Source of the DNA: a virus
Taxonomy: Duplodnaviria; Caudoviricetes
Strand: one strand, 5' to 3'
Length of the DNA stretch: 57,166 nt
Virus record (IMG/VR): IMGVR_UViG_3300030433_001734
Coordinates: 1 to 57,166 of that record
Positions 13,618-51,426 of this stretch are shown here, one piece after another; position 1 is the first letter of the stretch, and each line of letters starts with the position of its first letter. The translations under genes were made by a program, and so were the position numbers. Below the pieces are notes generated by a model that saw only the letters and a list, made by a program, of their open reading frames with translations, did not search any database and was not told the DNA's origin.

Positions 13618-13641
13618 AATAAAATAATTTAATTGGTTTAT

Positions 13642-13767
13642 AAAAAAAGATCACCTACGACTTGCACGCCAAGGTCCACTTCGCCACATATTGCGGTTTA
13701 GTTTTTACACCGTTGCTCACGAGGAAACTGTGCACAGTTATTGTCGGGGCAGAATAGACAGTGATCT
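13642..13767 (-). ncRNA. Candidate ~120-nt structured RNA ending in a U-run
   Basis: Closing stem AGATCAC/GTGATCT followed by a U-run; nested CGAC/GTCG and GTGCA/TGCAC pairs; GC-richer than flanks, no ORF. Confidence 0.35.
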
Positions 13768-28703: not shown

Positions 28704-31700
28704 TGAGAAAGCATATAAATGCAACTACTGCACAAGCCAGAAATAAAGGTTTAGAGGGTGCCAGTCCTGGTACCTCAGCTTCTCTTATATACACAGATCA
28801 TAAAGGACGTACTCTTGAGGGACGTCAATCTTATCCCGTGCGCGTATACGCAGATGGCGCGTATGTAGGTATTTTAAATCCTGGAGAAACTATAGATACT
28901 TTTGCTGCAAGTCGTATAGACGAAATGCCTGTTTATAAAAAAGGAGGTAAAATAAAAGGATCTGACGGTAAAGCATGCTGGAAAGGATATAGATTTGTTG
29001 GAACTAAAAATGGTAAAGACAGATGTGTTAAAGTAATGCAGGATGGTACTGTTGTAGAACAACCTGATTCTGGTCCAGAAATAGTAGCAAATCCAATTGA
29101 TTATACACAATATGAATATATTCCTTCTTCTCATTTTGAGATACCTACAGGAGAATTTACCTATAATTTTAGGAGATATATGGGAGACGATGAAAACGGA
29201 GATCCTATATTTGTAAACGAAGAAAGAACAGGAACACACGATCCTAATTGGTATTCTCCAGATTTTGATCCATATGAGTATTATAAATCAGGACAATATG
29301 AAGGTATGGATTTTAGAGATACTCCTATACGTGATTATGAGAATAATCCCTATATGAAGAATGAAAAAATGACGCATCCTTTAGTGTGGGATGAAGATAG
29401 GCTTATAAAAGAAAACAGAAAAAGGTTTAATCAGTCAGTAATAAATGATATATGGAATGAAGACGGAACTTTAAAACCTGAGTATGAACAAAGATTAGGA
29501 TCAAAAAGATACCTACGTCCTTTTGGGCCTAACTACGAAGACGCTCCTAATGCACAAACAAGCGAAGGAAGATGGGCGTCAGATTGGTTTGAAGGCACTA
29601 AATCAGGGTGGGGAAAGCCAGGTAGTGATAGCAGTTGGATGTATAATGAAGAAGCAGGAACATGGCATACTTTTGTTCCAAATGTCGGAGGAGAAGAATG
29701 GGACAATGGCGACTTTCAAGATTTAACTGAAAAAGAATTAAAAAAATTATATAAGGTATATAAAGAATACCCAGGATTTGGAGATATATCTAAAAAAGAG
29801 TTTATAGAAAGATATAAATCAGGAGATACATTTCATCCTCAAATTGCTGGTGTTGAGCAAGAAAAAGCCTGGATAAAAACTTTTGAAGATAAAGTACAGC
29901 CTTTTAAACAAGGAGAATTTGATGCACAAAAAGATTTTTTTGATGGTGCTATTAGTTCTGATTTATATAGAGAAAAATTAATTGCACAAGGATATGAAAA
30001 TGTAGACGAGATAATATCACAAAGAGAAGCAGCATTAGCTAATGCTAATATGAAGTATGAAAGTACTGCTGAGAGTTATGCAGATGAATATGTATCTACA
30101 GGAGGAGGAGATCAAAGTGGATATAGAAAAGGACTAGAAGGTGAGTATGATAAGCACACTAATGATATATATTCTATCCTTGACAAAAGGCAAATAATAT
30201 ATGATTTAATTGATCAAGGAAAAATAGATATAAGTAATTTAGGTAAATGGGATGCTCAGCAGATTTTGGGTATGTATAATGATTATACTCCTTTTGGAGA
30301 TGAAGCGCCTCCTACTGAGCATGGTTTTTATACTACGGGAGAGAGAGACGCTCTTTTTTGGTCACAGTGGGCAAATAAAGGAATTAACATGTCTGACTAT
30401 TTAAATAGTAAAATAAATGAAGGAAAAACTGGATCAAGAGCTTATGTAGCTAGCCCAGACGGAAAAACAGTTATATCTCCAAGACAATTACAACAACTTA
30501 ATATAGATTTAGGAGGAGAAGGAACTACTGAAGAACTTCATTCTTTTTTAGATGAGGTTTCTGCACACGAGCTTGGTCATCAAATGGGAGCAGTAAATGC
30601 TTCAGAAAAGGTACCCTACGGTCTTAATAAAAATGATCAAAACACTATCCATAGATTAATGGAAGAAAGTGGAATAAACTTAGATGACCTCAACTGGCAC
30701 GATAGAGCAGCATACGAAAGAAAAGCAGATCTTGATGCATTAAGATGGAAAATGTATAATACTATAGGATATGACTATAGAACAACTCCAATGACAAAGG
30801 AGATTCTTCAAGAGTATAAAAACTATATTAAAGAAAACCCAATTCCTAGTTTAGTAAATGATAGGAATTTTGAATTTTTTAAAGATGATAAATTAATAGA
30901 ATTTAATAATACTGTTGCTGATGCTACTAATGAAATAGGAGGTGATGATCTTATGTTTATGGAGCTTACAGCAAATGCTAGATACGGAGGCCCTGCTAAA
31001 TATCAAAATGCAGGTAACGTAGTATCTGATTCTACAAATGTTCAAATACAAAGTCCATATGATATAGAAATGGATCTTATCAAAAGTAACTTTGAAAAGA
31101 CTTTTTCTAAAGAGGATAGGGATTACATAAATTTTATAAATACTAGAACTCCTTTTAGAGATGAAACTACTACAGGAGATGATCCTGAACTTTTTTATTT
31201 AGATTTATATAATACAGAGTTAACAGCTGAAGAATTATTAGAATATTATTTATGGAAAGATGAGATGGCTTACAGAAGATCTCTTTTAAATAAAACTAAT
31301 ATAGAAGAAGAGTTACATAAACTAGATATGGATTTGGGTGCATATGATGTCCAAGGATGGTGGAAGTCTGGAGACTATGAAAACACTGATACAGATGGGC
31401 ACGGTACTGATAAATGGAAAAAACCAAACCATCCTACATTTAGTAATGAATCTAAATACGCATCAAACTACGAGTTACCTGAAGGAGAAGAAGACACAAG
31501 AAGTAATTATTTAGGAGGAACTTGGAGTGAGACAGGAGCTTATACTCCTTCTATACATAATATGTACACTAACGAAAGACTTCATTGGGAATTTAATAGA
31601 GAACCACATCGCCCTGAGCATTTATATATGGGTAATGATTTAATTTATAATCATCAGCATTTTCCTATAATTTATGATTTTGAAAAAACAAAAACTTTAG

Positions 31701-34456
31701 ATAATTATGAAGATGGAGGAGGAGTAAAAAAACAAGAAGAAATTCCTCAGTATATAGAAGAGCCTCTTACAGCAAAGATGCAAGAAAAACTTGATAAAAT
31801 GTATAGAGATAATCTAGGAGCTCCTCAAGATCTTGAAATTAATACATTTGATACAAGTACAGAAGACGGTATGATAAAATATTTAAAACATACCGAAAAC
31901 AGCATTATGAAAGGATATGACCCTAAAACAGATAGGTGGTATCCTCACGATGATGGAGCAGGATATATGACTATAGGATATGGGCACAATATAAACTCGC
32001 ACAAAAAAGATACAGGATATACTCTTGAAGAATTACAAAAGAATGGACTTAGTTCAGCTGAAGTCGAGGATCTTTTAAAATATGATATGAAAAGAGAATC
32101 AGACTTAATTGCAAAAAATGTACCTGGATGGGAAGATCTAAATACACAACAGAAAAATGCATTACTTGATATTCAATTTAATATTATAGGAAATGTTTGG
32201 ACTGAGTTTCCTTCGTTTACTGAAGCTGTTGTTAATAAAGACTGGAAGAATGTAGTTCTACATGGATCACGTGCAGAGTTTGCTAAAAATCCAGACGGTA
32301 CTTTTAAACCTAATCAAAGGAATACTGCTTTTTATAAAAGTATGGTAGAGCCTATGATGAATGCGTGGAGACCTAAAACTAAAAATCCAAACTATGTAGA
32401 AAAATTAGATTTGAGTCATATAACGAGGATTCCTCCTGCTGTTCGAGATAAAACATATGTAGACATGCCTATTTTTCCTACAATAGAAATAGACAAAATA
32501 GAAGAGTTTGAAGATGGATCTGAAGTAACAGGAGATCCTCCATCATACAATTTACAAGATTACTTTACAAACAATTTAATTGAAACAACAACTCGTTATC
32601 CTAATTTTTCTGATCAAGATATTTACAAATTTTATTTAGAGAATAAAAATCCAGAAGAAGGCTTTAGTGTTTTCTTTCCTGATGTTTCTGTTCTAAACGA
32701 ACCTCTTAACGAGTTGACTCCTGTTCCTTTTTACTCTTCTAATTTTTCTACTGCAATAGATACACCAAATTTTTACAGAGAAACTGGAACTCTATGTGCT
32801 TCAAATGGACAATTAATAGAAGGATGCGCAGGAGGATTACAAATAGCATATGAATATAATACTCCTTTAAGTAAAGATCAAGTAAGAAATGTAAATGGTA
32901 TAAAAGGAAATGCATGGCAAATGCATCAAAACGTAGTAGATGCTGGAGGACAATCTTTGTTTAATTACTCAAATTTATTAGGAATAGACGAAGACTGGAG
33001 ATCAAATAATTATAATATGAGCAGCGATGATTTATTTTATGAATTTAACAAAGCTAGAAACAGTTATAATCCAAATGATCTTTCAGGATTAGAAGGTGCT
33101 TTACAAGTTGGAGATTTAGTTGATATATTATACGATGGATCAAGTTATCAACCAGAAGCAATTCAAGATGGATTTGGTACTAACATAAATTCTCATGTAG
33201 GTAAAATTACTGAGAAAAATGGACAGCTATATGTTACTCATAATATTAAAGGTAAATGGTATTCTGATAAATTAGATAATGTATTACAAAATCAAAGATA
33301 CAGTACGGGAGGAAAAATGATGATTGTTGGAGGATACAGACCTAGATATGAATCAGGTTTAATTGATGGTGTTTCGTATAAAAACAGAATAGAAAATCCA
33401 GTAGACGGATATAATAGTTTAGTATCTATGGATTATCTTAATCATCTTGGTATGACAATGCCTAATATACAAAGCGATTTTGGATTTAGTGATAGTGATA
33501 GTTCATTAGTTGCAAAAGCTAGCTATGGAACATTTGGAAAAGAAAGTACTTTTGCAACAGGAGCAAGATGGGATGCTAAAAATTATTCAAGAGATTTATT
33601 GCGTGGTTACAAAGGATTAAACGATCAAGAAGGATTTACACTATCTCCTTTGCATGCTACTATTTCTTATTTGTTAGATAAAAAATTTACAGATGGTACT
33701 TTAGACATGGATAGTTTAAGTGAAGGAATGACTCAAATAAAATTAGATGAGTTTGTAAAAGACGATCATATAGCATCACTTTTTGCAGCTTATAATATTA
33801 CAGACCCCGATGTTTTATACACAACTGAAGGATCAAGTCGAGCAACTGCATTAGTTCATTCTTTAAATTTAAAATTAATCAATGATTATTTTTCTGGTCA
33901 TGATTTAAGCGATCAAGTAAAAATGAATATGATGCACATGGCTTTTAACAAAGGAATAGATAATGTTTTAAGAGATTTTGTAGATGATGAAAATATAGTA
34001 ACTCCAGCTAGTTTCCAAAAAGGACATGACCTTTATAAAAATATACATACAAATGAAGAGTCATATTCATATACTCCTAATAAAATAAGCGGCTATATTG
34101 ACTATGATCATTCAAAAATGAAAGCTAATTCTAATCGTGTGGCTAATTATGATGTTGAATCTTTATCAGGATTTGAACAAGGATACATGGATTTAATGGA
34201 AGAGTATGAAAAAAAGAAAGAAGCATTTAATCAAAGCATTAACGAAAATAAAAGAGAGTTTAATACAAGCCAAAGAAAGATAATGAATAAGGTAGATAAA
34301 CTTATAAAGAAAGCAAATAAAACAAAAGACATAAAGTATATTAATAAAGCAAAACAAAAATTAGAGAATTTTGCTTCTGATATAAATGATGATTTAAACA
34401 AAGAAACTAAAACAGTAAAGAGAGGACTAAAAAAGATTAAATCTTTATTTAGATAA
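28703..34456 (+). CDS. Large virion cargo protein with several putative hydrolase domains
   Basis: HELGH zincin motif, lysozyme-like E...D...TIGYGH, Cys/His (GCAGG..GNAW..GDLV..SHVG) domain, SLT-like ES..GMTQ..AFNKG. Confidence 0.65.
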   Translation: MRKHINATTAQARNKGLEGASPGTSASLIYTDHKGRTLEGRQSYPVRVYADGAYVGILNPGETIDTFAASRIDEMPVYKKGGKIKGSDGKACWKGYRFVGTKNGKDRCVKVMQDGTVVEQPDSGPEIVANPIDYTQYEYIPSSHFEIPTGEFTYNFRRYMGDDENGDPIFVNEERTGTHDPNWYSPDFDPYEYYKSGQYEGMDFRDTPIRDYENNPYMKNEKMTHPLVWDEDRLIKENRKRFNQSVINDIWNEDGTLKPEYEQRLGSKRYLRPFGPNYEDAPNAQTSEGRWASDWFEGTKSGWGKPGSDSSWMYNEEAGTWHTFVPNVGGEEWDNGDFQDLTEKELKKLYKVYKEYPGFGDISKKEFIERYKSGDTFHPQIAGVEQEKAWIKTFEDKVQPFKQGEFDAQKDFFDGAISSDLYREKLIAQGYENVDEIISQREAALANANMKYESTAESYADEYVSTGGGDQSGYRKGLEGEYDKHTNDIYSILDKRQIIYDLIDQGKIDISNLGKWDAQQILGMYNDYTPFGDEAPPTEHGFYTTGERDALFWSQWANKGINMSDYLNSKINEGKTGSRAYVASPDGKTVISPRQLQQLNIDLGGEGTTEELHSFLDEVSAHELGHQMGAVNASEKVPYGLNKNDQNTIHRLMEESGINLDDLNWHDRAAYERKADLDALRWKMYNTIGYDYRTTPMTKEILQEYKNYIKENPIPSLVNDRNFEFFKDDKLIEFNNTVADATNEIGGDDLMFMELTANARYGGPAKYQNAGNVVSDSTNVQIQSPYDIEMDLIKSNFEKTFSKEDRDYINFINTRTPFRDETTTGDDPELFYLDLYNTELTAEELLEYYLWKDEMAYRRSLLNKTNIEEELHKLDMDLGAYDVQGWWKSGDYENTDTDGHGTDKWKKPNHPTFSNESKYASNYELPEGEEDTRSNYLGGTWSETGAYTPSIHNMYTNERLHWEFNREPHRPEHLYMGNDLIYNHQHFPIIYDFEKTKTLDNYEDGGGVKKQEEIPQYIEEPLTAKMQEKLDKMYRDNLGAPQDLEINTFDTSTEDGMIKYLKHTENSIMKGYDPKTDRWYPHDDGAGYMTIGYGHNINSHKKDTGYTLEELQKNGLSSAEVEDLLKYDMKRESDLIAKNVPGWEDLNTQQKNALLDIQFNIIGNVWTEFPSFTEAVVNKDWKNVVLHGSRAEFAKNPDGTFKPNQRNTAFYKSMVEPMMNAWRPKTKNPNYVEKLDLSHITRIPPAVRDKTYVDMPIFPTIEIDKIEEFEDGSEVTGDPPSYNLQDYFTNNLIETTTRYPNFSDQDIYKFYLENKNPEEGFSVFFPDVSVLNEPLNELTPVPFYSSNFSTAIDTPNFYRETGTLCASNGQLIEGCAGGLQIAYEYNTPLSKDQVRNVNGIKGNAWQMHQNVVDAGGQSLFNYSNLLGIDEDWRSNNYNMSSDDLFYEFNKARNSYNPNDLSGLEGALQVGDLVDILYDGSSYQPEAIQDGFGTNINSHVGKITEKNGQLYVTHNIKGKWYSDKLDNVLQNQRYSTGGKMMIVGGYRPRYESGLIDGVSYKNRIENPVDGYNSLVSMDYLNHLGMTMPNIQSDFGFSDSDSSLVAKASYGTFGKESTFATGARWDAKNYSRDLLRGYKGLNDQEGFTLSPLHATISYLLDKKFTDGTLDMDSLSEGMTQIKLDEFVKDDHIASLFAAYNITDPDVLYTTEGSSRATALVHSLNLKLINDYFSGHDLSDQVKMNMMHMAFNKGIDNVLRDFVDDENIVTPASFQKGHDLYKNIHTNEESYSYTPNKISGYIDYDHSKMKANSNRVANYDVESLSGFEQGYMDLMEEYEKKKEAFNQSINENKREFNTSQRKIMNKVDKLIKKANKTKDIKYINKAKQKLENFASDINDDLNKETKTVKRGLKKIKSLFR

Positions 34457-40048: not shown

Positions 40049-43000
40049 ATGTCTCAAAGAATTTGTGTATGGTGTGATAATGGTAATGCAGTTTATACGG
40101 CTGCTCCTGCTTTAGATGGAGTATCTCCGTGCTCAGAACCTAATCCAGCAGATTGTCCTTGTGAAAATCTGTTAAATGCTCCTAATGTTCAAGCACAAGG
40201 AGTTACACAAGTTTATACTTCGTTTCATCCAGATCCTAATTTTTCTGTAGTACCTCAGGATTTTAATCCGTGTACTCAACAGAATGCAACTATATGTTAC
40301 ACTTGTAATAATGATAATTCTGGATATTTATCTCAAACTTTAATTAATGGAGGACCTTGTCCTTCAGGATGGTCTAATTCTATTCCTACTTGCGGAGAAA
40401 GTGAGAGTGACCCAACTAACCCTTTATGTCCTCCTCCAGCAAAAGGCTGTGATGTTTGTTATAGCGAGCAGTGTGCTAGTGATGGATCTTTAGAAGTTAC
40501 AATTACATTTGGACAAGGATTAAATAATGTACAAGTACAGATTGGATCTCAAAACATGCAAATATCTCAAGGATGTACTAGTCCAGATAGCAGTAATAAT
40601 CCTTTTACTGTTACTGTATTACCAGGAGATCTTTTATCTGTGAGTGGTTATTGTAGTACTCCATCAATTATAGATGAATGGAATAAAGAAAGAGACGGAG
40701 GAGATGCTCCTTCTTGGGGAGCTGAAGAATGTGGAGATGCAACAGTATCTTCGACTACAAAGATTGTTTGTTTTTATGATACTACATCATTAGGTGCGCC
40801 TGCTCAAGCTAGTATGTATAATGCTGCAAATGAATGGATAAAAACTATTCAAACTGACAGTGGCTTTACAGGAGAAGTATATCACGTAGCTATAGGAGGA
40901 GAAAGATGGGTAATGTGGCCTGCATGGTTATTAGATAATACAGTAGACATTGATGGAATTAATAGAACTAATCTTGCTGCTGCTTGTGGAGTTAATACTC
41001 CTTCAAGTAACTGGGATGCGGGAGAATCTGTATTGCCTGCGTGGAATTCTGATGCAAATGCTTATGTACAAGCTACAGGGTCTCAAGGAAATACTAAAGC
41101 TATGCCTGCACAAATTACTGCAGGAGAAGATGTATTAGTTATTATCTTTGCAGATGAATCTGCAGATCAACCAAATGCTTATACTGTAACTGGTACAGGA
41201 CCTGCTTCAGGAGGTGGTGGAGGACAAGGAATTGGAGGATACCATGGAAGAAACTCAGCAGATAATAATAATGCAGTTATTACACATGCAGATTCTATAT
41301 ACGATATTGTACTTCCTTCTTGTATTAGTGCTACAGGTAATACTAATAACTGGAATCTTTGGGAATTAGATTATAATATTGCAACACCTATAATCGCTGC
41401 ACATAATGCAGGATCAGGAAATATAAGAACTTTTGTATACCCTTCTCAGCCTACAACAGGGTCTATTGGAACTGCAAGACGTCCTTTTCCTTTTCATGTT
41501 TGGGCATCAATTAATTCTGGTTATAATAATACAGGTCTTTTACAAAATGGATCTTCAGCTCCTACTTGTCAAATTGCTGATTTATCTAATTTAGTACAGA
41601 ACGGAGGAGGAACTTTAGTTAACTGGTATGTACAAAATAATGTAGGTAGATTAGATCAATACGGATTTGGAGCTAATGTAGAATGTAAAGCATTTACTGC
41701 ATTAGACTTTGCAGCAGACTTAGATGCTTTTTTAAGTCTGAATAACACAACATGCGACAATACAGATTGTGCTGCTATTAGAGTTGTAACTGAATCGGGA
41801 GTAGGAATTGATTCAGAACCTGTTACTATAAATGGAATTAACATGCTTACAGATGGCCAAGGTTATACTACTTTGGTTAGTGGCTTAGTAGGAGGAGTAG
41901 ATATAAATGGATGTTTACATAATTTTACAGGAGATTGTAGTCAATATTTATTTGAAATAACTAAAATAGAATCTACTCATACTGCAGCTTTAACTTGTGT
42001 TTTAGGCTGTACTGATCCTACTGCTATAAATTATAACCCTAATGCTAACGTAGATGATGGGTCTTGTGAGTATTGTGTATGGGGATGTACTAATCCATTA
42101 TCTTTAAATTATGATCCAGCAGCTACATGTGATGATGGATCTTGTCAAGTATTACCAGACATTGTAGAATGTACTTTGATAAATATGTCTAAAGAAATAC
42201 TAAAACAGTGTCATGACGAATGCGGAGATGTAGAAGCCTATAAAGAATTGCTAGCAGATTACCGAGAAATGGAAGCAATTCTAGCTCAAATATATATGCT
42301 TATCGAATGCGATAAGACTGCAGAATTACAAGCATTAATGCCTAAAATTCTGAGATTAATGGAAAAGTATCAATGTGATAGTTGTTATGAATTCCAAGGA
42401 ACGTCTGGTGATACTACAACTACACAAGACGAAACCTCAGCAACTACATGTGGTGCAGAGTTATCAGGACCTTGTACAAATAAAATGCTTATTCCTAGTG
42501 TAGACGCTTTACAGATAGGTTACCAATTAAATGGTGGCGCTACTGTATATGCATCTACTTCTTCGAATACTGTACTTGGAGATATAACAGGAAATACTGT
42601 AGATGTTACTAGTTATTGCGGACCTACACAAGTAATAAAAACGTTAAATGCATGTGGTTTAGAAAGTATACCAAATGATGCTAACGTATATTGTTTTTAT
42701 GATGTTACTTCTACTTGTGTAGAAGATATACAAAAAATTGTAAACGCAGTAGAACTGTGGTATAAAAGTAAAGTAATAGCAGATCCTACGTATACAGGAG
42801 ATGTATATCATTTACCTGTACACGGAGAAAAGTGGTTAAGATGTGCAGAATATCCTATAGATCAATTATTACATTCAATGTCTTTGCGTTTAGTAAATGG
42901 CTCAGGAAATGCTTTAGGAGGAGGTAACAAAGGATTTTCTACAACTTTAACTGTTGATGTTTTAGATAGAAGCACTATAGGTACAACGCATACAATGGTT

Positions 43001-44554
43001 ACTCAAACAATGTATGGCCCTAAAGCTGGACCTGCAGTTTATAATGATATTGCTACAGGAACAGGAGCTCTTCCTTATTTAAGACCTGGAGGATCGTATG
43101 CAGATCAGGGTACTGCTAGTGGAGGTGCAAGTGATGATAAAGCAGTTGTTTTATGTTTCTTTGATGAAGTAGAAGGAAACCAAGGAGGAGGACCTTACCA
43201 TGATAGAGGGCACGCAGGAGACGGTAGTTATGGATACTGTCCTACAGGAGTTATAGAAGATTTTGGAAATGCTCCAAGAGCTAAATGGAAAACAGATTAT
43301 GATTCTTTTGTAGACAAACATCAGTATTATAGTTTCTTTAAAGGCTTTTTATATCCTGTAATTCCAGGAATACATGTAAGTTCTACAGATTGTGCATCGT
43401 CTTACGATGCAAATAACGCACCTAGTTATAATACAAATGCTTATGCAAATACAGGGAAAATGTTCTTTGTATTAAATGCATTAGCAGGTATACACAAAGG
43501 AGTATGGAATACAGCTACAGATGGACCTGTACCTATTAATCCTGTAATTGCAGCAGCAGCTCATCCAGGAAATGCAACTGTAACAGCTGGAACTTTAGGT
43601 AATTTAAATGCTATCACTCTTGCAGCTAATCCTTACGTAGCTCAAGGATATGATGGACTAAGCGATTATGGCTGGAGTATGGATGCTACAGTAGGTACAC
43701 CAGGAACAAATTCTATTGCAGGAGTATTTACAAGTGGTCAATTTAACAATACTTTAGACTCTTTATTATCAGGAGGAAGTAACTGTAATGGTACAGATTG
43801 TTTAACAGTTATAGTTAAAGATGCAGATACAGGAGCAGTTATAAATGATACATATACTAAGTCTGCAGTTACAGTACAGCCTGGAGTACATCAAATACTA
43901 GATCCTTCTTCTAATGTAACAGTAACTACTGCAGGAGAATGTACTGAGTATGTAGTTACTTTATTTAAAGATGTTATGGATCAATACACAGATTGTGTAT
44001 TAACAACTGCAATAACATGCGGATGTGGAGGCGATCCTTCTATAGTTCTTTCAGTAGGAGCACAAACTCAAATTACAGGTGTAACAACTAATGGAGAAAC
44101 TAAATACGGTACAATAAAGAATGAGACTACAGGAGTTGAAGATGATATTATTTTTGACCCTGATGTAGTAGGACCTTTAACAGGATCTATTACTCTAGAT
44201 AAAACATTAAAGAATAGTAGCTTTTTTAAACCAAATACAGAACTACCAGATGGTAGATATAAAATTACGTTAGATAGCGTAGGAGGAAAAAAGAAAGAAC
44301 TGTGCTTTTTAATACTGTGTGATTCTTATGCAAAATTACTAGATGCATTTGAAAGATACACACTACAGATTGATTGCTGTCCTACTTGTACAAGCCCTGA
44401 AGAAAAATACTTAGAGGCGTACAGCTTATATCGAGCATTAAAAGTAGCAGGAATAGACTGTGGACTTGAACCATGGATAGATAAGAATATTAAAAAATTA
44501 CAAGCGTGTTGTTCTGCATGTGGAGCAGATGCTGATTGTAACCAAAATTGTTAA
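40049..44554 (+). CDS. Large Cys-rich protein with two duplicated VWA-like modules and GCT(D/N)...DDGSC repeats (probable fibre/adhesin)
   Basis: Internal duplication CFYDTTS/CFYDVTS...VYH...GE(R/K)W...F(A/F)DE; two GCT..A/S.NY.P.A..DDGSC repeats. Confidence 0.6.
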   Translation: MSQRICVWCDNGNAVYTAAPALDGVSPCSEPNPADCPCENLLNAPNVQAQGVTQVYTSFHPDPNFSVVPQDFNPCTQQNATICYTCNNDNSGYLSQTLINGGPCPSGWSNSIPTCGESESDPTNPLCPPPAKGCDVCYSEQCASDGSLEVTITFGQGLNNVQVQIGSQNMQISQGCTSPDSSNNPFTVTVLPGDLLSVSGYCSTPSIIDEWNKERDGGDAPSWGAEECGDATVSSTTKIVCFYDTTSLGAPAQASMYNAANEWIKTIQTDSGFTGEVYHVAIGGERWVMWPAWLLDNTVDIDGINRTNLAAACGVNTPSSNWDAGESVLPAWNSDANAYVQATGSQGNTKAMPAQITAGEDVLVIIFADESADQPNAYTVTGTGPASGGGGGQGIGGYHGRNSADNNNAVITHADSIYDIVLPSCISATGNTNNWNLWELDYNIATPIIAAHNAGSGNIRTFVYPSQPTTGSIGTARRPFPFHVWASINSGYNNTGLLQNGSSAPTCQIADLSNLVQNGGGTLVNWYVQNNVGRLDQYGFGANVECKAFTALDFAADLDAFLSLNNTTCDNTDCAAIRVVTESGVGIDSEPVTINGINMLTDGQGYTTLVSGLVGGVDINGCLHNFTGDCSQYLFEITKIESTHTAALTCVLGCTDPTAINYNPNANVDDGSCEYCVWGCTNPLSLNYDPAATCDDGSCQVLPDIVECTLINMSKEILKQCHDECGDVEAYKELLADYREMEAILAQIYMLIECDKTAELQALMPKILRLMEKYQCDSCYEFQGTSGDTTTTQDETSATTCGAELSGPCTNKMLIPSVDALQIGYQLNGGATVYASTSSNTVLGDITGNTVDVTSYCGPTQVIKTLNACGLESIPNDANVYCFYDVTSTCVEDIQKIVNAVELWYKSKVIADPTYTGDVYHLPVHGEKWLRCAEYPIDQLLHSMSLRLVNGSGNALGGGNKGFSTTLTVDVLDRSTIGTTHTMVTQTMYGPKAGPAVYNDIATGTGALPYLRPGGSYADQGTASGGASDDKAVVLCFFDEVEGNQGGGPYHDRGHAGDGSYGYCPTGVIEDFGNAPRAKWKTDYDSFVDKHQYYSFFKGFLYPVIPGIHVSSTDCASSYDANNAPSYNTNAYANTGKMFFVLNALAGIHKGVWNTATDGPVPINPVIAAAAHPGNATVTAGTLGNLNAITLAANPYVAQGYDGLSDYGWSMDATVGTPGTNSIAGVFTSGQFNNTLDSLLSGGSNCNGTDCLTVIVKDADTGAVINDTYTKSAVTVQPGVHQILDPSSNVTVTTAGECTEYVVTLFKDVMDQYTDCVLTTAITCGCGGDPSIVLSVGAQTQITGVTTNGETKYGTIKNETTGVEDDIIFDPDVVGPLTGSITLDKTLKNSSFFKPNTELPDGRYKITLDSVGGKKKELCFLILCDSYAKLLDAFERYTLQIDCCPTCTSPEEKYLEAYSLYRALKVAGIDCGLEPWIDKNIKKLQACCSACGADADCNQNC

Positions 44555-44931: not shown

Positions 44932-44939
44932 TATATTTG
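44932..44939 (+). promoter_or_regulatory. Bacteroidota -7 promoter element (TATATTTG)
   Basis: Only 5 nt before the ATG at 44945, implying a leaderless or near-leaderless transcript. Confidence 0.55.
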
Positions 44940-44944
44940 TAAGT

Positions 44945-45982
44945 ATGAAAAAGTTTGTCTTATCTCTATGTATGTTAGTATGTATAAGCTTAAATGCACA
45001 AGAATTAAAAAAAGCATTTAAGTATTCTACTTTTTATGCAGCTGTAAATGGAAGTAATTCATTGTCTGATATTGATGTATATTCTGTAACAGACGGACTA
45101 ACTACACAAACTATTGCTACGCCATATGATTATAACGTTGCTTTAGGGATAAGAAAAATAGCTAGATTTGGTTACGAAAACAGAGCTAATACTTTTTACG
45201 ATGGTACAGAAACTTCTTATTCTGACGCTGCTACGTTAGGAAAAGTTTCGGGATTAGAGTTCTTGTTTGAAGCAGATTACAAGAGACAGCAAGGATCTAA
45301 CTATTTAGATCAGAACCATTTTATTAGATATGTAGCAGATAAATGGGTAGCTAAAATAGAATATCTAGAAGACGGATTTGCAGATATTAATTATTTTGAA
45401 GCATCGCAAAGATATAGATTAAAAGTAAATAACAAGTTATCTTTTAATATAGGTGCTGCTCAAAGAGTATCTGAACCTTACGGATATAATCCATTAGAAG
45501 AATGGGTACTTAGTACAGGAGATATTCACTATACATATCTAGCTATAGAAGAAGGTTATAATATAGATGTATATAATAGTGTATATACTAATCCAGATGG
45601 AGCTGTAGTTGCAACATCTGTTGACGTATGGAGGGAAGTAGTTATACCACAAGTACTTGCTGACTACGTACAAAAGAAAAGAGAAGAGCTTCCTACGCAA
45701 TGGAATTACTCTTTAGTTATAGGAGCTGATTATTATCACTATACGAAGAGTTTTTGGTTACACTGCTGGGGAAACTTATTGCCTTATCATTATGATGATG
45801 GCGGAGAGTTTTCATACCATGAGTTTAATAATAATGAGCAATGGTATGATTATTCGGGTGGTTTAATTTTTGGATATAAATTAAACAAAAATTTAGGAAC
45901 CTTCATTGAAGGTAAATATAATAAGTACTGGAATAGAAAATGGTACGATTTTAAATTTGGTATAAACTATATAATACTCTAA
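44945..45982 (+). CDS. Putative outer-membrane beta-barrel protein with Sec signal peptide
   Basis: MKKFVLSLCMLVCISLNA|Q signal; Tyr/Trp/Gly-rich amphipathic strands; C-terminal strand FKFGINYIIL. Confidence 0.6.
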   Translation: MKKFVLSLCMLVCISLNAQELKKAFKYSTFYAAVNGSNSLSDIDVYSVTDGLTTQTIATPYDYNVALGIRKIARFGYENRANTFYDGTETSYSDAATLGKVSGLEFLFEADYKRQQGSNYLDQNHFIRYVADKWVAKIEYLEDGFADINYFEASQRYRLKVNNKLSFNIGAAQRVSEPYGYNPLEEWVLSTGDIHYTYLAIEEGYNIDVYNSVYTNPDGAVVATSVDVWREVVIPQVLADYVQKKREELPTQWNYSLVIGADYYHYTKSFWLHCWGNLLPYHYDDGGEFSYHEFNNNEQWYDYSGGLIFGYKLNKNLGTFIEGKYNKYWNRKWYDFKFGINYIIL

Positions 45983-45986
45983 AATT

Positions 45987-46100
45987 ATGAAAAGTAAAAT
46001 ATGTAAATGGGTACAAGCTATAACATTTGGTTTAATATGCTTTGATTGGTGTGTAAAACCTGAAGAATGTGATTTAGGCGACAAGTGCTGTAAATCATAA
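45987..46100 (+). CDS. Small Cys-rich protein (37 aa, not in ORF track)
   Basis: MKSKICKWVQAITFGLICFDWCVKPEECDLGDKCCKS exactly fills the intergenic gap. Confidence 0.55.
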   Translation: MKSKICKWVQAITFGLICFDWCVKPEECDLGDKCCKS

Positions 46101-46104
46101 AGTC

Positions 46105-46314
46105 ATGCCAATAACTAATAAACAAATACATGACGAGTTAACAGACCTAAAAGAAGATGTTAGGTTTATTAAAAAAAGATTGTTAGATCCAGATGATGGG
46201 ACTATAGCAAGAGTAAATAAAAATACGTCTTTTAGAAAAAGCACGCAAAAAACATTGTGGTCTATATGGGTTGCAATTTTAGGAATTATTAGTAAACTTA
46301 TATTCTGGAATTAA
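46105..46314 (+). CDS. Small C-terminally anchored membrane protein
   Basis: Coiled N-terminus plus TM LWSIWVAILGII. Confidence 0.6.
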   Translation: MPITNKQIHDELTDLKEDVRFIKKRLLDPDDGTIARVNKNTSFRKSTQKTLWSIWVAILGIISKLIFWN

Positions 46315-46315
46315 G

Positions 46316-46600
46316 ATGAGTAAAGAGTTAAACGAAGATACATCATTTAAAATTAGTATTAAAACGCTAGCAGGAATTGCTGCACTTATTTTTACTATTG
46401 TAGGTATGTGGTTTGCTCTACAGGCAGATATAGAAGAAGCTAAAGAACTGCCAGTCCCTCCTCCACCCGATGTAACAAGGATGGAGTTTGATATGAAAGA
46501 TAAAAATATCAGACTAACAATTCAAAATACAGCTGATGACGTTGAAGAAATTAAAGACGACATCAAACGTATTGAAGAAAAAATAGATAAACTAAGATAA
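46316..46600 (+). CDS. Single-TM coiled-coil protein
   Basis: TM LAGIAALIFTIVGMWFAL, PVPPPP linker, coiled coil. Confidence 0.6.
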   Translation: MSKELNEDTSFKISIKTLAGIAALIFTIVGMWFALQADIEEAKELPVPPPPDVTRMEFDMKDKNIRLTIQNTADDVEEIKDDIKRIEEKIDKLR

Positions 46601-46624
46601 TTAATAACTTTAAAAACTAATAAC

Positions 46625-46984
46625 ATGGCAACTTATAAAGCAGATCTTACACTTACCTCTACAAATCTGACAAGTGATAATATGTCTGTCGCTGCTTCTA
46701 TAACAAATACATCTGCTAATTACGGAGGTGTAGTTAAACAACTTTTAAAATCAGCTATAAACGTAGCTTTATTTGATAAAGATGCATACTCAGAAGGAGC
46801 TATAGTATATATTATGAATGCAGATTCTGCAGGAACAGTAACTGTAAGTATAACAGCAGCAGAAGAAATAGTACTAGGTGCGGGAGAATGGGCTGCATTT
46901 CCTTGGGGAGACAGAACTACAGATATTCACGTAAAAACTGATCAAGCAGACGGAAGAGCTATTGAGTGGGGAGTATTTAACTAA
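46625..46984 (+). CDS. Probable virion protein, paralog family
   Basis: LGAGEWAAFPW...IEWG motif shared with 47003 and 23200. Confidence 0.55.
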   Translation: MATYKADLTLTSTNLTSDNMSVAASITNTSANYGGVVKQLLKSAINVALFDKDAYSEGAIVYIMNADSAGTVTVSITAAEEIVLGAGEWAAFPWGDRTTDIHVKTDQADGRAIEWGVFN

Positions 46985-47002
46985 TTAAATAAATAATAAA
47001 CT

Positions 47003-47377
47003 ATGGCAACTTTAAACGCAACAATAAAAGTAACTTCTGCAGATATAACAAAAGATAGCTTATCTTTAAGTAACTTAAAAAGTTATACTGTAAATACAGG
47101 AGGTATACTTACAAAGAATATAACAGCAACTACAGAAGGAACAGCTGTTAAGGTTTTTGAATCAACTGAGCACGCTGCTGGTACAAAAATCTTTTTACAT
47201 AATAAAAACGCAACGCGTACTTTAAAAATAAAACTTACTGCAGCATCAACACATGAGATGACTTTAGCTCCAGGAGCTTGGGCATTTTTTCCATGGAAAG
47301 CTGCAGTAGATATTACAGTTTTTGCTAGCGCAGCTGGTGGAACTATTTTAGAATACGGAGCTTTTGCTCAAGTATAA
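47003..47377 (+). CDS. Probable virion protein, paralog family
   Basis: LAPGAWAFFPW...LEYG motif. Confidence 0.55.
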   Translation: MATLNATIKVTSADITKDSLSLSNLKSYTVNTGGILTKNITATTEGTAVKVFESTEHAAGTKIFLHNKNATRTLKIKLTAASTHEMTLAPGAWAFFPWKAAVDITVFASAAGGTILEYGAFAQV

Positions 47378-47381
47378 AACA

Positions 47382-47714
47382 ATGAAAAAATTTGTTTGGA
47401 CAATACTATTGGCATTATTCTCATATACTGCAAATGCACAAATACATGTAATGCATTTTAATGCAGATTGGAATTCTGCTAATGATGTTAAATGGTTTAA
47501 ACAGTTAGATGACGTTGATAAATTTACAACAATTTGCATTGCTGCAAAACCAGATAAACAAAAAAAGTATGAAATTGTAGTTGTACCTACAATTATTATA
47601 TTTAAAGACGGAGAAGAAGTTAAACGCTTTCAAGCAGATATTTCATTTGCTATGAAAGCTAAACTAGAAGATGTGCAAGAAGTTATTAATGAACAATTAA
47701 TGAGTGACTTTTAA
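47382..47714 (+). CDS. Exported thioredoxin-fold protein lacking CxxC
   Basis: Signal MKKFVWTILLALFSYTANA|Q; HFNADWNSAN replaces F.A.WCxxC; KYEIVVVPTIIIFKDGEEVKRF is the thioredoxin cis-Pro region. Confidence 0.75.
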   Translation: MKKFVWTILLALFSYTANAQIHVMHFNADWNSANDVKWFKQLDDVDKFTTICIAAKPDKQKKYEIVVVPTIIIFKDGEEVKRFQADISFAMKAKLEDVQEVINEQLMSDF

Positions 47715-50039
47715 ATGAAAAAAGATATATCTAAAATATTATATGTAGCGTTAATGCTTTTAGTCTTTGGACTAAATTCTGTTTTTGGACAAGGCAAAGA
47801 AACTATTGTAAGTCTAGAAACAGATAGTTATCCTAGTGAAACTTATTGGATATTAATGGCAGACTCTTTATATGGTGATACTATATACGAGGTACCTCCT
47901 GGGCATTATACGCAACCTAATACAGGATATGTAGACACATGTTATATACCTGATAGTGTAAGTACTATAGTGTTTTTATTAAGAGATACTTATGGAGATG
48001 GAATGGACGGTAGTTATTATGTAGCTGTCTGTGGAGATACTATTATTAATAAACCAACTATTACTTTTAATACTGGAATATATCAAACTAGGCTAGTCCC
48101 TCCTTGTTTTCCCAATCCTCCTCCTCCTGGCCCGTGTTTACCTGCTACAGTTATAATTAACTTAGATCAGTATCAATCAGAAACATCTTGGCAAATCACT
48201 GATTCATTAGGGTTTGTAGTAGCAGCAGGTGGTGGGTATAGTACTCAGCCTGATTATGGTACAGTTATAGAACCAGTATGTTTACCTTTAGGACCTTTAA
48301 ACTTTACTATCTTTGATACTTATGGAGATGGTATGCAAGGATCTTTATGGCAAGGACAAGATGGTTCTTATTTTGTAAAACAATGTAATGATACTTTAGT
48401 GTACGGAACTGATCCTGCATTTGGATTAGATAGTACACATACATTTGTTATTGATTCTTGCCCTCCTATATATGGATGTACAGATGATGATTATGTAGAA
48501 TGGAATCCGTTTGCAGATACTGATGATGGTAGCTGTCAAACATTAAAAGTATTTGGATGCACAGATTCAACAGCTTTTAATTACGATCCAAATGCTAATA
48601 CAATGGATCTTATACCGCAGTGTGAGTTTACATTAGTATTGCATGATTTAATGGGTAATGGATGGATAGGATCTAATTTAGAATTATTACTTCCTGATAC
48701 ATCTTTTTCATTTACGCATCAAGGAGGATTTAATCAAGAATATCAATTTACTATAGATGCTCCAGATCCAGCAACGTTTAGATTTAGTATAAGTCCTCAA
48801 GCATCTCTTACAACAATAGAGTGCGGATTTACATTAATGAATCCTGAAGGAGACACTTTAATTAGCGTACAACCTCCGTTTATTCAACCTTTATTTCCTT
48901 ATACTTTTATAACTAATTGTGGAAATACATGTATACCTAAAATATATGGGTGTACAGACTCATTAGCTATAAACTATGATTCCTTAGCAAATACAGATAA
49001 CAACAGCTGCTATTATAATCCTGGTTGTATGAATCCTTTATACTTAGAGTATGATACTTTGGCTGATTACGATGATGGATCTTGTAGCACTTTAGTAGTT
49101 TTAGGATGTATGGATTCGACTGCATTAAACTATGATCCACTAGCAAACGTAGAAATACCTGGATCATGTATAGCAGTAGTAGAAGGATGTATGCAGCCTT
49201 TAGCGTTTAATTATAATCCAAACGCTAATGTAGATGACGGAAGTTGTATACCATTTATATATGGATGTACAGACGCAACTATGTTTAATTACGACTCTAC
49301 AGCTAATACAGATGATGGATCATGTATACCGTATACATATGGCTGTATGGATAGTACTATGTTTAACTTTAATCCTTTAGCAAATGCACCAGATACTTGT
49401 ATTCCTTTTATTTATGGGTGTACTGATCCTAGTATGCTCAACTATAACCCATCCGCTAACACAGAAGATTTTAGCTGTATCCCTTACATTTATGGTTGTA
49501 CTGATAGTACTGCCCTTAACTATGATTCGTTGGCTAATACTGACAACGGTTCGTGTGTGGCTGTGGTTGAAGGATGTATGGATCAAGATGCGTACACGTA
49601 TAACCAACTTGCTAATGTAAACGTAGAAGATTCTTGTTTTTATGACGCAGGGTGTATTACAGGTCCTGGTAATCCTTATTGGTTAAATGACCCTTGTTAT
49701 GCATGGGTTATAGATGTAGATTACTATTGCTGTAACACAAGCTGGGATACATACTGTCAAGCACAATATAATTATTGTGTAGACGGATGGCCTGTAGGAT
49801 TAGAAGATTTATTGTCAAGAGATTCAGAACTTGCAATATATCCTAACCCTACAAGCAATATGGTTTATTTAGCTACCAAGTTAAATGTATATGTTAAAGT
49901 ATACAATACTATAGGTATGGTTATATATGAGGGATTAAATCTAAAACAAATAGATTTAAGTAAAGAGCCTGTAGGGATATATAACTTAACGCTAGAATAT
50001 AATGGCTCTGTTATAAATTATAAAATAATAAAACAATGA
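47715..50039 (+). CDS. Secreted Cys-repeat protein with type IX secretion (T9SS) type A C-terminal sorting domain
   Basis: Signal peptide ..VFG|Q; about 11 GC(T/M)...A.....SC repeats; C-terminus IYPNPTSN..VKVYNTIG..IDLS....GIY.L......KIIKQ. Confidence 0.85.
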   Translation: MKKDISKILYVALMLLVFGLNSVFGQGKETIVSLETDSYPSETYWILMADSLYGDTIYEVPPGHYTQPNTGYVDTCYIPDSVSTIVFLLRDTYGDGMDGSYYVAVCGDTIINKPTITFNTGIYQTRLVPPCFPNPPPPGPCLPATVIINLDQYQSETSWQITDSLGFVVAAGGGYSTQPDYGTVIEPVCLPLGPLNFTIFDTYGDGMQGSLWQGQDGSYFVKQCNDTLVYGTDPAFGLDSTHTFVIDSCPPIYGCTDDDYVEWNPFADTDDGSCQTLKVFGCTDSTAFNYDPNANTMDLIPQCEFTLVLHDLMGNGWIGSNLELLLPDTSFSFTHQGGFNQEYQFTIDAPDPATFRFSISPQASLTTIECGFTLMNPEGDTLISVQPPFIQPLFPYTFITNCGNTCIPKIYGCTDSLAINYDSLANTDNNSCYYNPGCMNPLYLEYDTLADYDDGSCSTLVVLGCMDSTALNYDPLANVEIPGSCIAVVEGCMQPLAFNYNPNANVDDGSCIPFIYGCTDATMFNYDSTANTDDGSCIPYTYGCMDSTMFNFNPLANAPDTCIPFIYGCTDPSMLNYNPSANTEDFSCIPYIYGCTDSTALNYDSLANTDNGSCVAVVEGCMDQDAYTYNQLANVNVEDSCFYDAGCITGPGNPYWLNDPCYAWVIDVDYYCCNTSWDTYCQAQYNYCVDGWPVGLEDLLSRDSELAIYPNPTSNMVYLATKLNVYVKVYNTIGMVIYEGLNLKQIDLSKEPVGIYNLTLEYNGSVINYKIIKQ

Positions 50040-50428
50040 ATATATTAAAAAATATATTTTCTGGCAGTGCTACTGAATTAGTAAAAAGTGTAGGAGGAGT
50101 TATAGATAATCTACACACATCTAAAGAAGAGAAGCTAGAAGCAGAAAAACAAATAAAAGATATGATCATGGGTTACGAAGCAGAGATGCAAAAGCAAGTA
50201 ACTGAAAGATGGAAAGTAGATATGGCATCTGATTCATGGTTATCAAAAAACATAAGACCTTTAGTACTTATCTTTTTAGTAGTATCTACAGTATTAATGA
50301 TATTTATTGATGCTGGTGTTATTGCTTTCGAAGTAAAAGATACGTGGGTAGACTTGTTACAACTAGTATTAATCACTGTGATCGGTGCTTACTTCGGAGG
50401 ACGATCATTAGAAAAAGTAAAAAAATAA
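50036..50428 (+). CDS. Holin (3TM/GTA-holin-like)
   Basis: DSWLSKNIRPL, two hydrophobic helices, GAYFGGRSLEK. Confidence 0.75.
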   Translation: MNILKNIFSGSATELVKSVGGVIDNLHTSKEEKLEAEKQIKDMIMGYEAEMQKQVTERWKVDMASDSWLSKNIRPLVLIFLVVSTVLMIFIDAGVIAFEVKDTWVDLLQLVLITVIGAYFGGRSLEKVKK

Positions 50429-50433
50429 GAATT

Positions 50434-50766
50434 ATGGCTTTTTATAAATCAGGAATAGAAAGACTCATGCAGAGAGCAAGATCTCGTAGAGTTTTATGTG
50501 GCGCTAAATGCGCTAACAATATTGTAAGTGCCTATACTGCGTGGTTAAATTACGATGGAGGTAACGGATCTGTTGGATCTACAGGAGGAAATAATCCTGT
50601 AGGAAACGAACCTTCTGGAAATGGAGGCGGTGGAATGGGTAAAGGAATAAACAAATGGGCGTGTGTTGCTAATGTTGGAAGATCAGGTAATAGCTGCCAG
50701 CAAGTACCTGGAGGTACGTTTGCAACTTTAGCTGCGTGTGTATCAGGATCAGAGTGTTCAGAATAA
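50434..50766 (+). CDS. Gly/Cys-rich hypothetical virion protein (start corrected to MAFYKSG)
   Basis: Shares N-terminal M(A/S)FYKSG with the next gene. Confidence 0.55.
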   Translation: MAFYKSGIERLMQRARSRRVLCGAKCANNIVSAYTAWLNYDGGNGSVGSTGGNNPVGNEPSGNGGGGMGKGINKWACVANVGRSGNSCQQVPGGTFATLAACVSGSECSE

Positions 50767-50784: not shown

Positions 50785-51426
50785 ATGTCATTTTATAAAT
50801 CAGGTTTTAGAAGAGTGCTTCGTCAGGTTAGTACTGTTCGAGCTAAGGCAACCGAATTAGCAACCAACGAAAAAGCTGACGATATAACTAGAAGTAATAT
50901 AAGCGTAAAAGCTAATGCTAATCAAGCTGCTATAGCTACATTAAACACTGGAGCACTAAAAATATCTAGTGCTACAAAAACAATAGCACAGTGGAATACT
51001 GATGCTGTTAGTGGTACATATACTTTTCCAGATATTGATTTAAGAAAAGATGTAGTATACGGAGTTAGAATAGAGTGGTGGGATCCAAATGCTGCAAACA
51101 AAACTCCTACAGATTTAAGTAATGGTGGTGTTGCAGGATGGATTATGAGTACAGGAGGACACACTAATGTAAACGAAATGCATATCGCATCGTCTAGAAC
51201 TTTTGGAGCAAAGATAGCTAATGGAACAGGAGTGTATATAGAACAAGCAGGAGCAGTAGGGTCTTATGCTAGAACAGCAACATCTCAGAATTCTAATTTT
51301 AATCCTGCTGTTGCTTTGCCTCTAAAATTTAAAATTAATACAGAGCTAGAAGGAGGAACAGCAACACAAAAGTGTAAAATAACTGTTATTTATTCTGAAG
51401 TAATGGATGCTGAAACATATGAATAA
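50785..51426 (+). CDS. Probable fibre/virion protein
   Basis: MSFYKSG start, short coiled coil, then beta-rich head. Confidence 0.5.
   Translation: MSFYKSGFRRVLRQVSTVRAKATELATNEKADDITRSNISVKANANQAAIATLNTGALKISSATKTIAQWNTDAVSGTYTFPDIDLRKDVVYGVRIEWWDPNAANKTPTDLSNGGVAGWIMSTGGHTNVNEMHIASSRTFGAKIANGTGVYIEQAGAVGSYARTATSQNSNFNPAVALPLKFKINTELEGGTATQKCKITVIYSEVMDAETYE

Follow-up and report, generated by a model that had tools for sequence, protein, structure and literature searches.

An envelope trio and a probable type IX secretion cargo encoded side by side in an uncultured marine crAss-like phage

The linear viral contig IMGVR_UViG_3300030433_001734 of IMG/VR, analysed here over its whole length of 57,166 bases (the window), carries between positions 44,932 and 50,039 a run of genes on one strand, several of whose products are predicted for the host cell envelope. 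Four of them are the subject of this report: a 345-amino acid (aa) protein modelled as an outer-membrane (OM) beta-barrel, a 94-aa protein with a transmembrane (TM) helix (s94), an exported protein with a thioredoxin (Trx) fold, and a 774-aa protein that ends in a type A C-terminal sorting domain (CTD) of the secretion system known as type IX (T9SS) and that we call the cargo. A holin gene follows (Table 1). An earlier note on this DNA, made from the letters alone, had read the region as one phage cassette in which the barrel and the Trx protein might serve the cargo as its own anchor and chaperone. Our comparison of related viral loci leads elsewhere: the barrel, s94 and the Trx protein (the trio) are an autonomous, phage-only envelope set present in at least two phage lineages, and we hold it to be highly likely that trio and cargo are two separable units.

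Table 1. Features of the region, in window coordinates (nt, nucleotides; ORF, open reading frame; AF2, AlphaFold2; KD15, Kyte-Doolittle score)
Feature	Position	Strand	Remarks
TATATTTG promoter-like motif	44932..44939	+	5 nt before the barrel ATG, inside a 64-nt gap
Exported OM beta-barrel (predicted), 345 aa, trio member 1	44945..45982	+	AF2 model and fold matches; leader LNA/Q
37-aa Cys-rich ORF	45987..46100	+	Not conserved: 9/160 loci by tblastn
69-aa ORF with C-terminal hydrophobic helix	46105..46314	+	KD15 2.14 at residues 53-67; not conserved, 16/160 loci by tblastn
94-aa protein (s94), trio member 2	46316..46600	+	N-terminal TM helix, Pro-rich linker, charged helical C-terminus
119-aa protein without signal peptide, paralogue of next gene	46625..46984	+	15/160 loci
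124-aa paralogue of the 119-aa protein	47003..47377	+	24/160 loci
Exported thioredoxin fold without CxxC, trio member 3	47382..47714	+	Leader ANA/Q; alternative TTG start 47364
774-aa T9SS type A substrate (cargo)	47715..50039	+	Signal peptide, beta-sandwiches, Cys repeats, CTD
Type A CTD	49836..50036	+	Residues 708-774 of 774, extreme C-terminus
Holin	50036..50428	+	phrog_3427, E 8.1e-32; PF11351 24.3 bits, just under the cut-off of 24.8

The record also encodes a large terminase (phrog_6681, E 3.6e-128), a portal protein (phrog_6547, E 1.4e-190), a major head protein (phrog_11589, E 7.6e-123) and a DNA polymerase. The head protein matches 142 records in all, with 43% identity to the crAss-like Flavobacterium phages FpV4 and relatives and further matches to Bacteroides, crAssphage and Cellulophaga records, and marine metagenome contigs from several studies hold pieces of the window that are at least 99% alike; a blastn search of the region gave no match. 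The source is an uncultured marine crAss-like phage, for which the capsid identity to Flavobacterium phages and the Gln that follows the signal cleavage sites (see below) point to a Bacteroidota host. That the phage is lytic, as the earlier note had put it, is not shown by the record: no integrase was found in it, yet it is only 61% complete according to CheckV.

The first trio member was modelled with AF2 as a barrel of ~14 strands with an insert at 180-250 (predicted local distance difference test (pLDDT) 81.8, predicted template modelling score 0.74), in keeping with the aromatic, beta-barrel-like protein that had been proposed from its sequence. OM barrels took all the top places among its fold matches (Foldseek, VIA): NanC (E 1.4e-5) and Omp33 (Z 10.0, root-mean-square deviation (rmsd) 4.3 over 165 residues) headed the list, with EstA (Z 9.9), TamA (Z 9.5) and OmpG (Z 9.4) further down. 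A C-terminal aromatic residue is the OM beta-signal; of 118 homologues, 75 end in F, 20 in R, 18 in L and 5 in some other residue, the window copy being one of those with L. Pfam, NCBIfam and PHROG returned no match for the barrel. Two more specific identities were considered. Kinship with PorP/SprF was rejected: no PF11751 match was found (Pfam, E≤0.1), and a profile comparison by hhalign with 12 such proteins, taken from three Bacteroidota metagenome-assembled genomes (MAGs), reached 10.8% probability over 19 columns. A particular likeness to PorV was not apparent either, with 6h3i_F at Z 8.2 (rank 18) and 8gl6_F at a TMq of 0.32, neither of them above unrelated barrels.

In a representative library of 1.84 billion proteins, the barrel family comprised 335 clusters at E≤1e-3, reaching down to 26% identity, and ten divergent members that were searched matched no Pfam family. 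The 30 nearest Atlas clusters were all viral and unnamed, and the closest clusters with a name, autotransporter and OmpG barrels (0.93-0.94) and DUF2730 (0.82), offer no more than leads. Three barrel variants had no tblastn match in 50,697 GenBank phage records. A scan of one genome per species (185,579 species) gave eight loci, all of them MAG contigs (L162-L169), labelled Parvibaculum, Nitrosopelagicus, Rickettsiales, Maricaulis, Winogradskyella, Sphingobacteriales and Flavobacteriales. Since the same phage genes are present there and several of the labels are implausible as hosts, these loci are most simply explained as mis-binned phage contigs. Judged by its sequence relatives, then, the barrel family is phage-only. 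Some of its members carry a different leader, in which a lipobox-like Cys, the motif xxPKKCC and a small residue followed by Gln replace the plain one. It is found in 28 of 118 barrel and 2 of 102 cargo homologues (L004, L005, L018, L066, L081, L083 and others) and hints at variants that are lipoproteins or that have a swapped leader in common.

The Trx-fold protein counts 110 aa from the ATG that opens MKKFVW and 116 aa from the alternative TTG. Taken alone, the window protein stays below the family cut-offs (PF00085, E 4.1e-4 and 20.8 bits against a cut-off of 23.5; TIGR01068, E 2.2e-5), and a profile of 69 homologues matches the thioredoxin 2vim_A at E 5.1e-10 and 82 sequences of the Protein Data Bank at E≤0.01. 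Aligned to 2vim_A, the family has the CGPC loop deleted and conserves no Cys, which excludes redox activity and bears out the earlier description of a thioredoxin fold lacking CxxC. N37, N40, P75 and T76 are invariant, and the cis-Pro-Thr is thereby kept. The remaining trio member, s94, matched no family. It has a hydrophobic stretch (KD15 2.41 at residues 21-35) and a charged, heptad-like tail, and is probably a bitopic inner-membrane protein with its helical tail facing the periplasm.

The cargo opens with MKK, a hydrophobic stretch (KD15 2.18, residues 5-19) and, by a Kyte-Doolittle heuristic, a VFG-Q cleavage site. The AF2 model (pLDDT 72.7 overall, domains in the 80s) places beta-sandwich domains at residues 28-127, 141-246 and 302-399, a helical Cys-rich domain at 655-703 and a C-terminal sandwich at 706-773 (pLDDT 80-89). 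The sandwich domains gave generic C2, CUB or galectin-like fold matches only, at very low TM-scores. Two-Cys repeats, put at about 11 beforehand, number exactly 11 by regular expression (residues 254-303 and 412-641), among 38 Cys in total. The type A sorting signal claimed for the C-terminus was checked with the two models that had been proposed for it, and both matched above their curated cut-offs, PF18962 with 30.0 bits (cut-off 27, E 6.6e-7, residues 708-772) and TIGR04183 with 29.1 bits (cut-off 23). The modelled domain also superposes on the CTD of NucA in the translocon complex of F. johnsoniae (8glk_D), with a target-normalised TM-score of 0.74, an rmsd of 2.3 Å over 73 columns and 25% identity.

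The reading frames that the earlier note had listed for the three exported proteins hold, the middle one with either of its two starts, and so does its observation that each has Gln right behind the predicted cleavage site (LNA/Q, ANA/Q, VFG/Q). Each of the three has a hydrophobic N-terminus by the Kyte-Doolittle scale, and the pattern extends to the homologues: a leader was found in 118/118 barrel and 100/102 distinct complete cargo homologues, and the Gln in all 118 barrel homologues, in 110 of 117 for Trx and in 97 of 102 for the cargo. The cargo has all the sequence and fold features of a T9SS type A substrate, and we think that it probably leaves the cell through this system.

Searches with the cargo returned 2722 relatives for its N-terminal part and 1301 for its C-terminal part, all unnamed metagenome proteins. 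Its length varies between 636 and 1388 aa across homologues, with variable N-terminal domains, and one viral relative already carries a UniProt-derived sorting-domain protein name. In BFVD, the best named relative came from 'Virus NIOZ-UU157', another of whose proteins is annotated as crassvirus muzzle. By tblastn against GenBank phages, the Cys repeats were all that matched, in 5 records; one of these repeat-bearing genes, in Synechococcus phage S-CAM3, is annotated as virion structural protein. Within the window, the 1501-aa protein of the tail block (40049-44554) has two of the two-Cys repeats of the cargo at residues 651-699, and BLASTP aligns the two proteins with 56% identity over 54 residues in its best segment. 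Over the repeat region of the cargo gene (48500-49700), metagenome contigs show many skips and back-joins between repeat units, as expected from assembly over near-identical repeats or from variants that differ in repeat number.

On the strength of the shared repeats, one could take the 774-aa protein for a fibre or decoration of the virion, with a last domain that is an immunoglobulin-like sandwich and merely resembles a T9SS CTD. The tail-block protein and the S-CAM3 gene are consistent with this, and BFVD lists crAss-type structural proteins among the weaker fold matches. However, an exported protein cannot join a virion that is assembled in the cytoplasm, and the Sec-type leader is kept in nearly all distinct homologues of the 774-aa protein. 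The domain, moreover, scores above the cut-offs of two curated sorting-domain models, forms the extreme C-terminal end and fits the CTD of a translocon-bound substrate. We regard a virion role as very improbable.

Viral contigs were scanned with four queries, namely the barrel, the cargo and two divergent barrels (P0012 and P0050); each scan gave 84-130 relatives, and we retained its best 80. For the clade of the window, the best 80 of 84 from the barrel scan and the best 80 of 112 from the cargo scan made up 160 loci. In these, tblastn found the barrel in 149, the cargo in 145, s94 in 143, the Trx protein in 139 and the holin in 48, and the other small ORFs in 9-24. The small TM and Cys-rich ORFs that the earlier note had seen interspersed in the region are real frames (37, 69 and 94 aa), and of these only the 94-aa one is conserved (143/160 against 9 and 16).

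All four genes were present in 127 of the 160 loci, which correspond to 120 distinct protein sets, and always on the same strand. The proposal that the barrel, Trx and cargo genes co-occur in related contigs thus held when it was checked, with s94 as an additional conserved member. Only three gene orders were observed, all cyclic permutations of one another: barrel-s94-Trx-cargo in 54 loci, s94-Trx-cargo-barrel in 38 and cargo-barrel-s94-Trx in 35. In the 33 loci that are incomplete, the place of every missing gene would be past the end of the locus or contig. The cargo is inserted at three different places around the trio, and its length and N-terminal domains vary.

The cargo tail varies as well. 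Of the 120 distinct sets, 78 have a full type A tail, 38 a short one of ~45 residues, 3 are cut off and 1 is of another kind; PF18962 (E≤0.01) matches 71 of 111 distinct C-terminal 100-aa pieces. The short tail (39 of 110 distinct tails) was considered as a possible cut-down CTD; its comparison with the type A alignment by hhalign gave E 0.0072 and 2.3% probability. The short tail is not recognised by Pfam, and T9SS export is therefore not assured for the whole cargo family, which weighs against the picture drawn from the window copy.

The divergent barrels P0012 and P0050 are 34% and 28% identical to that of the window, and their clades were searched with hidden Markov models (HMMs) in 80 viral loci each. 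The trio is retained in both: in the P0012 clade, the barrel was found in 80 loci, s94 in 75 and Trx in 72, and in the P0050 clade, in 80, 69 and 74, respectively. A type A CTD was found in none of the 160 loci. For the Cys repeats there were 5 hits in the P0012 clade and none in the P0050 clade, and in the two loci inspected (L172, L180) they belonged to tail-fibre-like ORFs that lie upstream. Tight packing of the three genes in the order s94-Trx-barrel was seen in 69 of 80 loci of the P0050 clade, and no other same-strand ORF of exported type and at least 90 aa was found in any of these 69. Five whole trio-bearing records (44.4, 56.9, 71.7, 72.9 and 87.9 kb, four of them at least 90% complete) were likewise searched for PF18962, and none had a match.

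Searched with the capsid protein of the window, two of these five records gave a match, both in the P0012 clade and at 28-30% identity; the three records of the P0050 clade gave none. The trio is thus present in two phage lineages or more. Because it occurs without a type A CTD cargo, the barrel and the Trx protein are not cargo-specific helpers, and the suggestion that they are the cargo's own anchor and chaperone is not supported by the counts just given: no type A CTD in 160 divergent loci, no PF18962 in five whole genomes and no other exported ORF in 69 packed loci.

The integrated display system of the earlier note has to be weighed all the same. In it, the barrel would be a dedicated OM adaptor or anchor and the Trx protein a periplasmic holdase for the Cys-rich cargo, and the whole set would place the cargo on the surface of the infected cell for exclusion, adhesion or blocking of the T9SS. 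PorP/SprF-like barrels serve proteins with type B CTDs, which offers an analogy. The clade of the window speaks in its favour, with four genes together on one strand in 127 of 160 loci, three cyclic orders and every miss at an end, so that the cargo stays beside the trio through three rearrangements; in the window itself, the Trx gene abuts the cargo gene. Further support comes from the P0012 clade, where a conserved exported protein with 9 Cys lies between barrel and s94 in 69 of the 69 loci that have s94 after the barrel. This protein (182-310 aa; L170-L249, e.g. L172 9056-9775) shows by eye a Cys/Asp motif like that of the LDL-receptor A type and has no match in Pfam, PF18962 included, or in PHROG. 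Two of three clades thus pair the trio with an exported Cys-rich protein, which keeps a weakened version of the integrated idea alive and counts against a trio that stands wholly on its own.

Compared with type A CTDs by hhalign, the tail of the 9-Cys protein showed just a weak likeness to a CTD strand (E 0.0028, 10.9% probability over 14 columns). A likeness of this tail (L172) to the short cargo tail, seen by eye, was dropped after an HMM of the short tail found nothing; it had no match in either divergent clade at E≤1e-3. A complex prediction for the barrel and the last 99 residues of the cargo scored 0.00 against a mark of 0.32, from which we draw no inference.

Against integrated display stand the P0050 clade, where the trio occurs alone and none of the 69 packed loci has another exported ORF, and the whole trio genomes free of PF18962. 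The barrel has neither PF11751 nor a profile likeness to PorP/SprF, and PorV is just one among many barrels at Z ~8. With no Cys in the place of the active site, the Trx protein is unable to make or rearrange disulphides. Taking both sides together, we consider integrated display unlikely, and we return to the reading of trio and cargo as separable units.

What the trio does on its own is suggested by its surroundings. In the window, the ATG of the holin overlaps the stop codon of the cargo by 3 nt, and cargo and holin may therefore be translationally coupled there. The distance between trio and holin was measured in all loci with a three-sequence holin HMM. A holin was found in 61 of 80 loci of the P0050 clade, at a median of 465 bp from the trio (60 within 2 kb), in 47 of 80 loci of the P0012 clade, at a median of 509 bp (all within 5 kb), and in 49 of 155 loci of the window clade, at a median of 2.2-2.7 kb (45 within 5 kb). 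One P0050 locus and three P0012 loci that extend 5 kb or more to either side had none. Locus L275 has the order tail fibre, 77-aa ORF, s94, Trx, barrel, two small basic proteins, holin (PF11351, 57.4 bits) and phrog_3108; in L172, barrel and 9-Cys protein come first and, after several genes, s94 and Trx, which are followed by two small paralogues, one endolysin-like gene (phrog_33083, E 1.9e-15) and the holin.

We favour a spanin-like role because the trio is autonomous, would occupy three compartments and is tied to the holin. Lysis, by breaching of the OM in the manner of spanins, is the most likely function that we can name for the trio, and given that the argument is one of gene position, we name it tentatively, as somewhat less likely than not. 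A search for one spanin family, Rz (PF03245), gave no match in the five trio genomes.

Several observations weigh against this role. Thirty-five loci of the window clade lack a holin despite at least 5 kb on both sides, and the endolysin of the window (Peptidase_M15_3, 22711-23178) lies ~22 kb from the trio. No trio member matches a known spanin, holin or endolysin family in Pfam, NCBIfam or PHROG. The leader of the window barrel is of the signal-peptidase-I type and not that of an o-spanin lipoprotein, and the ~60 residues of s94 past its TM helix seem, by our estimate, short to span the periplasm. The trio also adjoins tail-fibre genes, so its position may mean merely that it is a late gene set, and since the same holin family is found in all three clades, the linkage could reflect one inherited or transferred cassette rather than repeated selection.

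The tail-fibre neighbours would also suit a trio devoted to superinfection exclusion or receptor masking, which would alter the OM against further phages or progeny, with the cargo as a second surface layer. Phage OM proteins are discussed in such terms in a preprint on huge phages (10.64898/2026.10.24.761521), in a passage that cites the blocking of LamB by lambda Lom. The Cys repeats that the cargo has in common with the 1501-aa tail-region protein would fit as well. The late structural and lysis position and the close tie to the holin, on the other hand, fit poorly with exclusion, as the exclusion genes of virulent phages are usually early. No likeness to a known exclusion protein was found in Pfam, NCBIfam or PHROG. 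This function seems to us distinctly unlikely.

We therefore keep to a modular T9SS cargo inserted into a lysis-linked envelope trio. Taken as a whole, functions included, this statement is in our judgement close to evenly balanced, and falls slightly on the side of doubt. On this reading, the region, which lies between tail genes and holin, would be a late-operon set directed at the host envelope and made of two separable units. The first, the trio, would comprise s94 in the inner membrane, the Trx fold in the periplasm and the barrel in the OM; through contacts that we infer, it would assemble across the envelope, act at the end of infection and help to breach the OM, and it travels with the holin in several phage lineages. 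The second, the cargo, would be exported by Sec, its repeats probably being disulphide-bonded in the periplasm, and would be passed by its type A CTD to the T9SS of the host, reaching the surface or the medium shortly before lysis. A bolder version, which we find doubtful, makes the trio a third type of OM-breaching phage device, a three-part, barrel-based analogue of spanins that is in wide use among marine Bacteroidota phages of more than one lineage, some of which would have added to it a hypervariable protein displayed by the T9SS just before lysis. Such a displayed protein might hide the receptors on debris or fasten the dying cell to particles.

The cassette was said to lie behind its own motif, and TATATTTG is indeed present ahead of the barrel gene. 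It resembles the -7-type promoter of Bacteroidota. Across the window, the general form TAnnTTTG shows no enrichment (83 copies against an expectation of 77.6 ± 7.3, with 24 of 100 shuffles reaching 83), and the motif by itself is therefore weak evidence of a promoter. The exact octamer TATATTTG occurs on the + strand at 19742, 34568, 44932 and 52087, 5-34 nt upstream of gene starts at 19775, 34590, 44945 and 52122; each of the four genes follows a gap, and the four sites are candidate late promoters.

Among the minor genes of the region, the two that adjoin the Trx gene encode ~120-aa paralogues that start with MAT and have no leader or family match. A similar pair occurs in L172, of the divergent P0012 clade, between Trx and the endolysin-like gene (12975-13343 and 13373-13738). 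Just past the holin, the frames at 50344-50766 (at an internal Met) and 50785-51426 (at the start) share an opening motif, M, A or S, FYKSG, and look like paralogous N-termini. The 1917-aa protein at 28703-34456 contains an endolysin-like segment at residues 1082-1183 (phrog_7, E 3.7e-7) and may be a virion-borne wall hydrolase. Contigs of the metatranscriptomic library X20 fall in 9 of 30 bins of the region, among them 46111-46368, across the junction of the 69-aa ORF (s69) and s94, and 49941-50206, across the junction of cargo and holin, which is not proof of transcription.

Among known systems, the Rz/Rz1 spanins resemble the predicted make-up of the trio in that they combine an inner-membrane protein with an N-terminal TM helix and helical tail, an OM partner and a place beside holin and endolysin. 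The trio differs in that its OM partner is a 345-aa barrel and not a small lipoprotein, in its extra periplasmic Trx fold and in the lack of sequence similarity. Type B systems such as SprB/SprF likewise have a T9SS cargo gene that adjoins the gene of an OM barrel of ~300-350 aa; here, however, the cargo CTD is of type A, and the barrel has no PF11751 match or profile likeness and exists without the cargo. With thioredoxins, the Trx-fold protein shares the profile match and the invariant cis-Pro-Thr, but it is exported, has lost CGPC and scores below the cut-offs of PF00085 and TIGR01068.

Phage genes for T9SS cargo are already in print. The 'Cryophage' of Bellas et al. 2020 (PMC7468147) is, as here, an uncultured Bacteroidota phage with type A sorting domains on genes that vary between variants, and a hijacking of the host T9SS was proposed for it. 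Its cargo, however, consists of an endoglucanase, a GH39 protein and a PA14 protein of a cryoconite phage, unlike the Cys-repeat beta-sandwich protein found here in a trio beside a holin, and the passages on these genes mention no barrel, Trx or membrane-protein set alongside. De Jonge et al. 2019 (PMC6949934) likewise reported ORFs with a T9SS sorting domain, from crAss-like contigs of the gut, where they go with putative carbohydrate-binding repeats. These share the crAss-like lineage and the sorting domain with our case and differ in being BACON-repeat proteins upstream of the head genes, for which the passages concerned describe no function or envelope trio. The statement of the earlier note that it knew of no such phage system thus goes too far for the cargo, given these two papers, and stands for the trio: full-text literature searches, supplements aside, found no description of a set of barrel, dead thioredoxin and membrane helix, or of its link with a T9SS cargo.

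The nearest relatives of the barrel in kind are lambda Lom and the 1,603 OM proteins of huge phages in the preprint named above, which, as presented there, are also beta-barrels with a signal peptide, destined for the host OM. Those of the huge phages are described as mostly 8-stranded and OmpA/OmpX-like, with bacterial homologues and in genomes above 200 kb (10.64898/2026.10.24.761521); the barrel here has ~14 strands and no cellular homologue that we found, the genomes that carry it measure 44-120 kb, and it is a fixed part of a trio. Neither T9SS nor 'type IX' nor thioredoxin is mentioned in the text of the preprint.

According to a survey (PMC12596118), in the part that concerns them, Bacteroidota phages use unimolecular spanins. 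The spanins of these phages are poorly known, and a barrel-based device beside the holin would, if true, be a new answer to how they cross the OM. Equally, a phage that loads a variable protein onto the host T9SS minutes before lysis would, if true, represent a new virus-driven change of the cell surface in flavobacteria. Flavobacteria rank among the major degraders of particles in the sea. Viral DNA from the ocean is rich in the module, with 335 barrel clusters and 2722 relatives of the cargo N-terminal part. Set beside the systems above, the cargo is a variant of a kind already reported, and the trio is an abundant envelope set that is newly described here.

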